Source of the DNA: Candidatus Micrarchaeota archaeon
GTDB lineage: Archaea > Micrarchaeota > Micrarchaeia > Anstonellales > Bilamarchaeaceae
Length of the DNA stretch: 31,468 nucleotides
Assembly: GCA_040754495.1 (NCBI GenBank)
Contig: JBFMCO010000050.1
Span: 1-31,468 of the forward strand
Direction of reading: 5' to 3'
Below the pieces are notes generated by a model. That model saw nothing but the letters and a program-made list of their open reading frames with translations, was not told where the DNA came from and ran no database searches. The position numbers and the translations under genes were made by a program. Positions 13,445 to 30,904 of the stretch are shown one piece after another. Position 1 is the stretch's first letter. Each line of letters begins with the position of its first letter.

Positions 13445-13706
13445 TGGGCCCGCGCGGAATCGAACCGCGCATCTCCTGCATTTTGTCCTTTTTAGGAAAA
13501 CGCACAAGAACGACGTTTCGTTCTTGGCGCAGCGAGAACGTAACGACGTTCTCGCCGAGGACCAAACTGACTTGCTAATTTTTGCTCTCTGGAGCAAAAA
13601 TGGCTTACACCCAAAACCCGAGAGGGTTTTGCAACAGCCGGTTTTGGTCCCGCTTTTCCTAAAAGCGGGTGTCAAGCAGGCGTCTTAACCGATCGACTAC
13701 GGGCCC
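13445..13706 (-). tRNA. tRNA-Val(GAC) with a 189-nt intron at 37/38 (exon 1 13670-13706, exon 2 13445-13480; CCA not encoded)
   Basis: acceptor GGGCCCG/CGGGCCC with A73; anticodon arm CCTGC-TTGACA|T-GCAGG; T-arm CGCGG-TTCGATT-CCGCG. Confidence 0.92.
13481..13669 (-). mobile_element. MITE-like palindromic element forming the tRNA intron
   Basis: 11-bp subterminal inverted repeats TTTTAGGAAAA/TTTTCCTAAAA (13490-13500, 13654-13664), five internal hairpins, related module at 30735-30773; mobility is inferred. Confidence 0.5.
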
Positions 13707-28855: not shown

Positions 28856-30451
28856 TCACGGCCTCTTGTAGAGCTCCGAGAGCTTCCTTATCTCACGGAG
28901 CTTCCCGTGCGCGGACTCCAGGCGCGACATGCATTTCACGAACGTGGCCGGGGCGTAGGCCTTCTTCGAGTAGAGGCGCTTGAGGTGCTCCGAGTAGGCC
29001 GAGTTTATCTGCTCGCGCAGGAGGACGTCGTTTTCCCGCATCGCAGCCACGTCCGCGTCTATTATCGAGGGGAAGTTGGCCGAGAGGTGGCCCAGATCAT
29101 CCATGATGCGGAAGTGGACCGCGTCCACGTCGCTGCAGGCGTCGGAAGACATCAGCCTCCCCGAGGTTCTCATGGAGTTGGCTGCGTAGGCCATCGCGAC
29201 GCCGAGGTCCGCTATCTGCTCGAGGGCGTTCGACATGCGCAGGAGGAGGACGTTGCGCGAGACCTCCTTAGGCGAGAGCGCCCGGCCTGAGAGCTCGAGC
29301 AGCGCCTTCTCTATCCTCTCGTCGAGGTAATCGTTCAGGGCTTCGCGTTTGAGAAGGCGGCGGAAAGCCTGGCCGTCCTCTCCGTGCATGACGTCCCTCG
29401 AGCGCTCCATCACCTTTATCGTGTTGGAGAGGAGATGGCGGAGCTCTGCCTCGACCGCTGCGAACGCCTTCGGGTTGTCTTCGGGGAGCCTGTCGTTCAG
29501 GCTCACGGTCTGGAAAAGTATCTCCTCCTCCCTGCCCGGGACGAGCTTCTCGACGAATTTGCTGAACGGCTGGAGGACAATGAGGAATGCCCCCGTGGCT
29601 ATTATGTTCGAAATCGTGTGGGCGTTCGCCGCCTGCTGGGCCGCGCTGCCGCCGAGGGACATGATGAAGGAGACGAACTGCGGAAGGAACGGGAGGATGA
29701 GCAGCACCCCGGCCACGTTATAGAGGAACTGGGCGACGGCGGTCCGCTTCGCGAAAAGCCCGAGCCTGAAGGAGGATATCAGCGGGGTTATGGTGCCGAT
29801 GTTCGAGCCGAGGACCAGCACGATGGCTTCCTGCACGCCGATTATGCCGTTGCCGGCAAGGACGACCACGAGGCCGGTGAAGACGCCGCTGGACTGGAAG
29901 AGGTTGGTGACTATGAATCCTACGAGAAGGGCGGTTGGCACGTCGGAAAGGGTTGAGATGTACGATACCAGGGCCGGGTCGTCGCGAAGCGGGGCCGTGG
30001 CCCCGGCTACCAGCCCCATGCTGTGGTACACGAAACCGAAGAAGAACAGGGGCCTCCCGAGGAAGGCGAACCTCCCCCCGAAGAGGCTGAGCAGGAAGCC
30101 GAGCGGTATGAAAACGATACCCAAGGAGGTGAAATTCAGGGCGACAAGCTGGGCGGTTATCGTGGTGCCAATCCCGGCGCCGAATATTATGGCGAGGCTG
30201 TGGGCGAATGATATGACGCCGGAATCCACGAGGCCGAGGGTTATCACTGCAACAGCCGTGCTGGACTGCACGAGCGCGGTCACGACAGCGCCAAGGAGCG
30301 CCCCGCGCGCCGGGTTTTTCGTCGCGCTCCTGATGAACGAGCGGAACCTCTCGCCCGCGACGCGCTGGATTTCCATGCTGAACTGCTCCATGCCGTAGAG
30401 GAACAGTATCAGGCCGGAGGCGATTGCGAGTATGAGCCCGAACTCAAGCAT
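28856..30451 (-). CDS. Na/Pi cotransporter family protein with PhoU-like C-terminal domains
   Basis: LFLYGM, QSSTA and QSSG repeats, GAGIGTT/GSNIGT, helical C-terminus; start at MLEFG. Confidence 0.92.
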   Translation of the reverse strand: MLEFGLILAIASGLILFLYGMEQFSMEIQRVAGERFRSFIRSATKNPARGALLGAVVTALVQSSTAVAVITLGLVDSGVISFAHSLAIIFGAGIGTTITAQLVALNFTSLGIVFIPLGFLLSLFGGRFAFLGRPLFFFGFVYHSMGLVAGATAPLRDDPALVSYISTLSDVPTALLVGFIVTNLFQSSGVFTGLVVVLAGNGIIGVQEAIVLVLGSNIGTITPLISSFRLGLFAKRTAVAQFLYNVAGVLLILPFLPQFVSFIMSLGGSAAQQAANAHTISNIIATGAFLIVLQPFSKFVEKLVPGREEEILFQTVSLNDRLPEDNPKAFAAVEAELRHLLSNTIKVMERSRDVMHGEDGQAFRRLLKREALNDYLDERIEKALLELSGRALSPKEVSRNVLLLRMSNALEQIADLGVAMAYAANSMRTSGRLMSSDACSDVDAVHFRIMDDLGHLSANFPSIIDADVAAMRENDVLLREQINSAYSEHLKRLYSKKAYAPATFVKCMSRLESAHGKLREIRKLSELYKRP

Positions 30452-30502
30452 GGGAAAATATTCCACCGTCGCGATTAAATATCTCTGCTGGGGATATTTT
30501 GC

Positions 30503-30575
30503 AATGATGACAACGGTGATTGCCTGGCTGCGGCCAGGTCTCACCGTCATCAAAATGATGACAACGGTGATCGCC
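30503..30575 (+). repeat. 22-nt direct repeat with an internal inverted copy
   Basis: AATGATGACAACGGTGATYGCC at 30503 and 30554; TCACCGTCATCA at 30541-30552. Confidence 0.85.
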
Positions 30576-30734
30576 GAGCGAAGCCCTAAGCCACCCGATT
30601 GTTCGGAGTGCCGAACAATGGGCCCCATGAACGGTTCGCCGTTCATGTGGGGTTCCGGATACGTGTCAACGGCCCGGAAACAGGGAGCAATCCCGGCCAC
30701 GGCGTAAGCGATGAAGATTGACGTGCGGTCTGAT

Positions 30735-30773
30735 GCGCCTTTTAGGAAAAGGCGCCCAAAAACGGGTTGTTGC
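30735..30773 (+). repeat. second copy of the tRNA-intron 5' module
   Basis: GCGCC-TTTTAGGAAAA-GGCGC-CCAAAAACGGGTTGTTGC versus intron CCCGC-TTTTAGGAAAA-GCGGG-ACCAAAACCGGCTGTTGC. Confidence 0.75.
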
Positions 30774-30904
30774 GCTCGCCTTCGGCTCGCGTCGTAGGGC
30801 ACGGCTAGTAAGTCGCGAGAAGGAGAAACTGCTGAAAATGTTCCTGGATGCTCCGAGGTTCAGGCAGCCATCAGAAGGAGAGCATCAGCGATAATGACAA
30901 AGAC

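Follow-up and report, generated by a model that had tools for sequence, protein, structure and literature searches.

Why does a short hairpin-forming sequence that lies directly behind a putative non-coding RNA recur as the beginning of a tRNA intron in the same stretch of Micrarchaeota DNA, and what kind of element is it? A preliminary description of the window (the whole 31,468-nt stretch that was analysed) had reported that the first 39 nt of the intron, at 13631-13669 on the minus strand, match positions 30735-30773. Both stretches read as reported. The intron copy (13669 to 13631, minus strand) is CCCGC-TTTT-AGG-AAAA-GCGGG followed by the tail ACCAAAACCGGCTGTTGC, and the other copy (30735 to 30773, plus strand) is GCGCC-TTTT-AGG-AAAA-GGCGC followed by the tail CCAAAAACGGGTTGTTGC. 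The TTTT-AGG-AAAA core is the same in both, three of the five outer pairs are swapped with all five still paired, and the tails agree at 14 of 18 positions without a gap.

A dispersed family of hairpin-and-tail modules

The preliminary description had proposed one dispersed element family, had called for a covariance-model scan, and would have given up the idea had no further copies turned up in the genome. We built such a model (R1) from 22 copies, covering a 9-bp hairpin and the tail, and at a threshold of E ≤ 0.01 it found 44 copies in the 1.63-Mb genome; the family therefore stands, with members inside a tRNA intron and bordering a non-coding RNA. The resemblance of the two copies in the window is also significant, since R1 scores them at 61.8 bits (13669 copy, E 3e-15) and 56.5 bits (30735 copy, E 1e-13). 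Searched for by itself, the 11-mer core turned up at 17 sites in the genome. The unit spans about 40 nt and usually consists of TT, a perfect hairpin of 21-23 nt and a CCAAAAC...TGTT tail. In its 21-nt form the hairpin has a variable 5-bp GC stem around a fixed TTTT-NGN-AAAA, and the tail follows the consensus (N)CCAAAAC-NGG-YTGTT. The 22 aligned copies show little or no variation in the AAAAC and G of the tail, and none in the four inner T-A pairs of the hairpin.

The outer stem varies in a coordinated way. Double-sided changes occur at all five outer pairs, in 23 cells of the genome set and in 42 cells of an independent set of 24 copies from relatives (211 cells), and no shuffle reached the covariation score of the real alignments. 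The suggestion that the hairpin is under constraint is thus upheld by covariation of the outer stem. The two copies in the window are nevertheless not a case of compensatory change between them, as had been supposed, for they are separate members of a family with at least nine stem variants. Because our first list of copies had required a paired stem, the count was repeated with the core and tail as the sole criterion; all five outer pairs were formed in 30 of 35 such matches. The stems are almost purely Watson-Crick, with a single G-U pair (a U-G) among the 211 cells of the relatives' set and none in the genome set. This near-absence of G-U pairs favors a palindrome kept as DNA, or on both strands, rather than a helix that forms in RNA only, and such stems would fit a DNA palindrome usable on either strand.

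The left end of the module is well defined. Among 60 copies of one variant, taken from some 30 MAGs, 55 have T at position -1 and 49 at position -2, with no preference at -3, so that the boundary is sharp. Copies occur in both orientations and include at least eight inward-facing (inverted) pairs in the genome. A T-loop motif is found no more than 300 nt away from 30 of 43 copies, where 10% would be expected; paired copies are not independent in this count. Among seven sampled congeners, six carry 4-39 R1-type copies and the seventh none, and genomes of the phylum outside these congeners hold 0-4 copies each (151 genomes sampled). An exact 29-nt module variant was found at 60 sites among 185,579 species genomes, and its carriers are only Micrarchaeota, Micrarchaeia, Bilamarchaeaceae or unnamed archaeal MAGs. 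From these searches the repeat appears to be specific to one Micrarchaeota lineage.

Table 1. Features of the window discussed in the text, with the basis of each assignment
Feature	Position	Strand	Basis or remark
tRNA-Val(GAC) exon 1, positions 1-37	13670..13706	-	fold and intron-less orthologues
tRNA-Val(GAC) exon 2, positions 38-73	13445..13480	-	fold and intron-less orthologues
bulge-helix-bulge intron, 189 nt, at 37/38	13481..13669	-	fold; junction fixed by intron-less orthologues G011, G029, G039
5' module of intron (hairpin 13669-13649, tail 13648-13631)	13631..13669	-	R1 match, 61.8 bits
nested 74-nt two-hairpin element of another repeat family	13487..13560	-	92% identical to loci in G021, G034
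degenerate inverted module core, TTTTCCTAAAA on RNA strand	13486..13503	-	core search (13490-13500) and minimum-free-energy fold
TATA-like ATTAAATA	30474-81	+	22 nt upstream of first box C copy
5' duplication of small RNA: 18-nt direct repeat (30503-20, 30554-71) around 33-nt insert	30503..30554	+	sequence comparison
long box C/D small RNA, conserved, structured central domain	30555..30733	+	BLAST in 75/98 genomes; 12-sequence alignment
box C ATGATGA	30555-61	+	small-RNA alignment
box D' CCGA (CUGA in others)	30574-77	+	small-RNA alignment
two extra hairpins in central domain of small RNA	30594..30652	+	alignment; present in this genome and G021 only
box C' GATGAAG	30710-16	+	small-RNA alignment
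D guide, 13 nt, invariant	30717-29	+	small-RNA alignment
box D CTGA	30730-33	+	small-RNA alignment
linker T (30734) and 21-nt perfect hairpin of solo module	30734..30755	+	R1 match 30735-30780, 56.5 bits; 9-bp hairpin fold
module tail CCAAAAACGGGTTGTTGC, gives module orientation	30756..30773	+	22-copy alignment
CTCGCCTTCGGCTCGC motif	30775..30790	+	5 genomic occurrences (C5, C29, C46, C50, C71), downstream of modules or tRNAs

Module-built introns of tRNA-Val(GAC)

That position 13669 is the first base of an intron, as the preliminary description had it, is confirmed by a bulge-helix-bulge fold and by the intron-less orthologues, in which A37 is joined directly to T38 within a canonical cloverleaf. 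At the 37/38 junction the minimum-free-energy fold gives CCUGC-UUGA-CA^C and ACAA-AA^U-GCAGG, the motif being read by hand inside a 7x7 internal loop of that fold. Its 4-bp helix (UUGA/ACAA) consists of three Watson-Crick pairs and an A-A mismatch, with the bulges CA^C and AA^U. In the helix next to the motif, the core of the 5' module pairs with the degenerate inverted core near the 3' end of the intron and closes the intron. By sequence and fold the segment has the features of an archaeal bulge-helix-bulge tRNA intron, and its excision is predicted. The element nested within it, being 92% identical to loci in two other genomes, belongs to a second small repeat family.

Orthologues of this tRNA present the same gene empty and filled in many forms. 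The 37/38 intron is a hairpin alone of about 30 nt in G037, a single module in G019 and G024 (~56 nt), the 3' inverted module alone in G005 (~44 nt), and two inverted modules in G002 (77 nt), with similar arrangements in G021 and G009; in G012 two modules flank a central hairpin in an intron of 101 nt. G027 has an unrelated intron of 41 nt, and three further relatives (G025, G015, G020; loci L120-L122) are without the 37/38 intron and have instead a module-built intron of ~40-53 nt in the D-loop. The placement of the hairpins is regular, since hairpin A, where present, begins 0-2 nt past the 5' cut, and in all five introns with a 3' inverted module precisely 2 nt separate the end of hairpin B from the 3' cut.

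Gene finders handle such tRNAs poorly. With default settings ARAGORN missed tRNA-Val(GAC), reporting no tRNA in the window, and with introns allowed it called the gene Phe; elsewhere in the genome it called a probable Arg(CCG) Trp and a probable Glu(UUC) 'Stop'. Its anticodon calls are thus unreliable for intron-bearing tRNAs, and we read the junctions by hand. Long introns were seen in nearly all tRNA genes of this genome. A canonical bulge-helix-bulge could not be drawn for every module intron, one example being tRNA-Thr on contig C52, which may have a relaxed motif. The genome encodes a splicing endonuclease of the multi-unit type, a 421-aa reading frame at about 34.5 kb on C14 with two tRNA_int_endo matches, and the three-unit enzyme of ARMAN-2 cuts relaxed motifs (PMC3239211). 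Rfam yielded no family for the tRNA-Val intron locus or for the small-RNA locus described below, at either gathering or permissive thresholds.

The copy behind box D and other module sites

The second copy in the window stands behind a small RNA that is conserved in its own right. We searched 98 genomes of the family by BLAST with positions 30440-30900 (a 461-nt query) and obtained matches in 75 of them; many matches end at query base 294, which is window position 30733, and others begin at 295. Box C near the 5' end and box D at the 3' end are invariant in all 12 aligned orthologues, D' (CUGA or CCGA) follows box C by 12 nt, and C' (GAUGA(A/C)G) precedes box D by 13 nt. RNAalifold found 28 pairs in these 12 sequences, nine of them with compensatory changes. 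The order of boxes C, D', C' and D and the guides of 12-13 nt are those of archaeal box C/D small RNAs. Unlike the usual members of that class, which measure 50-70 nt, these RNAs are 126-191 nt long across orthologues, hold a conserved structured domain between D' and C', and reach no Rfam family at threshold (best match 23.8 bits against a cut-off of 45, with weak C/D matches only). Standard libraries do not recognise this small RNA of the window, which is widely conserved and, for a box C/D RNA, unusually long.

The D guide pairs at 11 of 13 positions with ACCGCCCGTCAAG, a sequence found in all five relatives searched, and the internal mismatch adjoins the predicted site. We take ACCGCCCGTCAAG, a candidate target, to be the decoding-centre region of 16S rRNA, in which the rule that the modified base lies 5 nt from box D would give C1402. 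The D' guide had no consistent target; LSU rRNA is not assembled in this genome. At the 5' end of the small RNA, the 33-nt insert between the two copies of the direct repeat includes a small hairpin along with the 18-nt repeat in inverted form, and G025 shows a comparable layout in which the repeat measures 16 nt. The upstream block, made up of the start of the Na/Pi gene and ATTAAATA, is present also in G018, the sole relative compared by eye. The GAACGGTTCGCCGTTC hairpin of the central-domain insert occurs five times in the genome, in some cases inside tRNA introns. We also considered two other identities for 30501-30806: SRP RNA gave no match in the window (its best candidate lies at C66:5182-5433, E 1e-9, 46.8 bits against a cut-off of 96.5), and RNase P RNA was located on another contig. 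The AT-rich contig end (30905-31468, minus strand) encodes a DUF4411 protein (E 6e-26).

The module begins one T after box D of this RNA. The anchor ...GGTCTGA of the box D region is present at 48 of 50 orthologous 3' junctions, and 45 of the 50 loci are empty; the five filled ones carry a module at +0 or +1 after CTGA, with three unrelated stems, GCGCC here, CCAAC(C/T) in G019, G013 and G017, and TGAAAC in G068, a genome of another genus. In many relatives (loci L085, L092, L095, L102 and others) box D is followed by a conserved trailer, GTAG(T/A)TTTCATTAGCCTGA. Of the earlier placement of the module "inside or at the edge" of a non-coding RNA, only the edge survives: it lies in the 3' flank, one base past box D, and conservation across the 50 orthologues stops at CTGA. 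Given that a module marks the first intron base in tRNA introns, one might suppose that this copy, too, opens an intron, here within the non-coding RNA. In the 45 empty orthologues the DNA beyond box D is unrelated, and R1 found no inverted partner module. Downstream of the module there is neither a second exon nor a duplicate of the small-RNA 3' end (alignment score 16, with shuffled sequences at 15 on average), and the search for such a duplicate scored equal to shuffles in a further two filled loci, those of relatives. Since nothing downstream resembles a second exon or small-RNA end, we place the copy in the 3' flank and, judging from these comparisons, regard it as no intron of the small RNA; that it starts one seems to us hardly credible. 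Its right boundary is undefined by comparison because the closest relative, G021, has no homology or synteny past box D.

Other copies show how varied the sites are. The proposal that the module targets structural RNA genes is too narrow, as one copy follows the stop codon of rpl23 and another sits in frame in pyrF. In RNase P RNA (C61:150-340, locus L040) the 3' strand of P1 is followed by one T, the module, about 100 more bases and a 16-nt repeat; this exact copy of the RNA end (ACTATGCCCCTCACTT) closes an insert of ~130 nt. In three tRNA trailers the order is discriminator base, one T and hairpin. A duplicated gene end was seen to adjoin a module at tRNA-Gly. The rpl23-rpl2 spacer (C19:11762-11808, locus L041) is filled by a module from the rpl23 stop codon to the rpl2 start. 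In pyrF (C14:17174-17219, locus L039/L044) the in-frame module would encode RLLGKGAPKRGVT; modules of 39-42 nt occupy the same site in this genome (G000) and in G034, 11 orthologues have 6-7 residues there (mostly KCGKKY-like), and G037 has an unrelated 12-residue insert. This case is a replacement and no clean insertion. Altogether, empty and filled orthologous sites are found in three kinds of gene.

These positions could be read as the work of host selection, with the module serving as an RNA processing or termination signal. A hairpin one nucleotide past a terminal helix would make a helix-bulge-helix site for the broad-specificity splicing endonuclease or another 3'-end enzyme, and the cuts would fix where tRNAs, RNase P RNA and the small RNA end on the 3' side, and likewise the intron ends. 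In favor of this, the discriminator base, the P1 helix and box D are each separated from the module by exactly one T, and in different species three module variants hold the same point behind box D. The splicing endonuclease cuts between bulge nucleotides 2 and 3, which agrees with the distances of 1 nt and 2 nt found at the ends of introns. The hairpin also has a T4-T6 tract, and the encoded enzyme is multi-unit, like the ARMAN-2 enzyme that accepts relaxed motifs (PMC3239211). A signal selected by the host is, however, hard to square with its lack at 45 of 50 orthologous small-RNA loci and at many tRNAs, with copies in coding sequence and after a protein stop codon, and with the range of 0 to 39 copies among congeners, and the near-absence of G-U pairs speaks against an RNA-only constraint. 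We consider a host-selected signal unlikely as the main explanation.

Proposed mobility of the module and comparison with known systems

A number of observations point to a mobile DNA repeat: the swings in copy number among congeners, the empty and filled orthologous sites, the replacement of one variant by another at one site, the occurrence of both orientations, nested insertions and Watson-Crick-only stems. The reading that we favor, with moderate confidence, is that the module is a short, non-autonomous palindromic repeat, mobile at the DNA level and tolerated where its RNA copy is removed or harmless, and that 30735-30773 is a solo copy of it. Such a repeat would spread and turn over as DNA and would persist where its RNA copy gets removed or does no harm. 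In tRNA genes, single modules or inverted pairs are themselves the introns, with the hairpin against the splice site at about 1 nt past the 5' cut and 2 nt short of the 3' cut. A bulge beside a helix is the geometry that the splicing endonuclease cuts, and cleavage would fall at the base of the hairpin. Survival mostly in tRNA genes would fit removal by that enzyme, of which this genome encodes the multi-unit form. Behind stable RNA genes the module lies one T past the mature 3' end, and the 30735 module would most likely be a co-transcribed trailer or a T-tract stop that is trimmed off.

What might move such a repeat is less apparent. The preliminary description had proposed a search for a cognate transposase, and none was found; no PF01797 (Y1/RAYT) gene is present in this genome, which is 80% complete, or in G022. 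We rejected a Y1 transposase as partner, since it is absent from both these genomes and the copy in G034 belongs to an IS200 with its own CCGGTCTGTGACCGG end hairpins. The PF01797 copies of G013 and G034 are IS200-like, with hairpins that differ from the module. A module adjoins IS200 in G034; there, at C1:~64.5-65.1 kb (locus L060), the IS200-type transposase gene with its CCGGTCTGTGACCGG hairpins lies directly upstream of an intron-bearing tRNA-Arg(CCG). TnpB genes are present, and no link between them and the modules was seen. No target-site duplication was clear beyond T or TT. Measured against MITEs of DDE transposons, which combine terminal inverted repeats with a fixed target-site duplication and an autonomous relative, the family has inverted-pair forms and shows only T or TT readable as a duplication; no autonomous element was found.

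Random insertion followed by tolerance would not by itself lead one to expect the exact +1 placement behind mature RNA ends. Tolerance leaves the constant 1-nt, 2-nt and one-T spacings unexplained, and for this reason both the processing signal discussed above and a route through RNA keep some weight. Along the latter route, intron RNA released by splicing would be joined to the ends of processed RNAs, or inserted by reverse splicing at sites that resemble a bulge-helix-bulge, and then copied into DNA; such intron RNA starts 1 nt ahead of hairpin A and stops 2 nt past hairpin B. Copies that begin exactly at splice sites and mature 3' ends would follow from this, as would introns without a long target duplication and the duplicated gene ends that adjoin modules at RNase P RNA and tRNA-Gly. 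Yet we found no reverse transcriptase in this genome (80% complete), copies lie in both orientations and in intergenic DNA and coding sequence, and the TT left boundary is independent of context; on these grounds we judge spread through RNA to be quite improbable. A further idea, speculative and somewhat doubtful though with a real chance, is that the module acts as a portable "cut here" device. A TT-hairpin beside any RNA helix would make half of a bulge-helix-bulge site for a relaxed endonuclease, so that the repeat could be removed from tRNA, RNase P RNA, guide RNA and even mRNA, and the host might be starting to use it for the 3' ends of stable RNAs.

On how archaeal tRNA introns are gained, a census of Asgard genomes in 2026 identified no general route of arrival (bioRxiv 10.64898/2026.10.13.758758). 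We found no published description of this module, of repeats in Micrarchaeota or DPANN tRNA introns, of MITE-like archaeal introns or of archaeal REPINs in a literature search of incomplete coverage. The closest described case, as far as the summary in PMC4090602 presents it, is the transposition of tRNA introns in Thermoproteales (Fujishima et al. 2010, Mol Biol Evol 27:2233), for which that summary gives transposition as inferred without a mechanism. There, as here, near-identical intron sequences occupy different tRNA genes and positions, the introns have bulge-helix-bulge motifs, the endonuclease is of broad specificity, and gain after speciation is inferred (PMC4090602). Unlike those introns, the shared unit in Micrarchaeota is a defined palindromic module of ~40 nt, single or in inverted pairs, which also occurs in RNA-gene trailers, intergenic spacers and coding sequence.

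Two further systems share parts of this picture. Integrase-generated attL/attR duplications at tRNA genes (PMC3293823) resemble the duplicated 3' ends that bracket the insert at RNase P RNA (16-nt repeat) and at tRNA-Gly; in contrast to them, the insert here is only ~50-130 nt, there is no integrase, and no such repeat is found at the small-RNA 3' end. The closest structural analogue is the bacterial REP/REPIN family with its RAYT transposases (PMC3116915, PMC3733652), whose members are likewise palindromes of 20-40 nt, in high copy number, non-autonomous, lineage-specific and often arranged in inverted doublets, which fold into a long hairpin. The module differs from them in lacking the GTAG/CGTC tag, having instead a TT left end and a CCAAAAC tail; in the absence of a RAYT or Y1 transposase from this genome (80% complete); and in its archaeal host, where the majority of copies are introns within tRNA genes instead of intergenic repeats.

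In concept, the nearest parallel is the eukaryotic introner, or transposon-derived intron (PMC11282704), in which a small repeat likewise makes a removable intron where it lands. Unlike introners, the Micrarchaeota element is only ~40 nt long, and its predicted removal is by a protein endonuclease that reads RNA structure, with no spliceosome. In the present family the presumed mobile unit is narrowed down to about 40 nt with a sharp left boundary, sister species show one tRNA gene both without the unit and with many forms of it, and the unit is found outside tRNA genes as well. The copy directly behind the small RNA offers an unusually direct look at the possible origin of tRNA introns in archaea, and the properties just listed make insertion and excision directly testable. 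If the "cut here" idea is true, the module would be an archaeal counterpart of eukaryotic introners.
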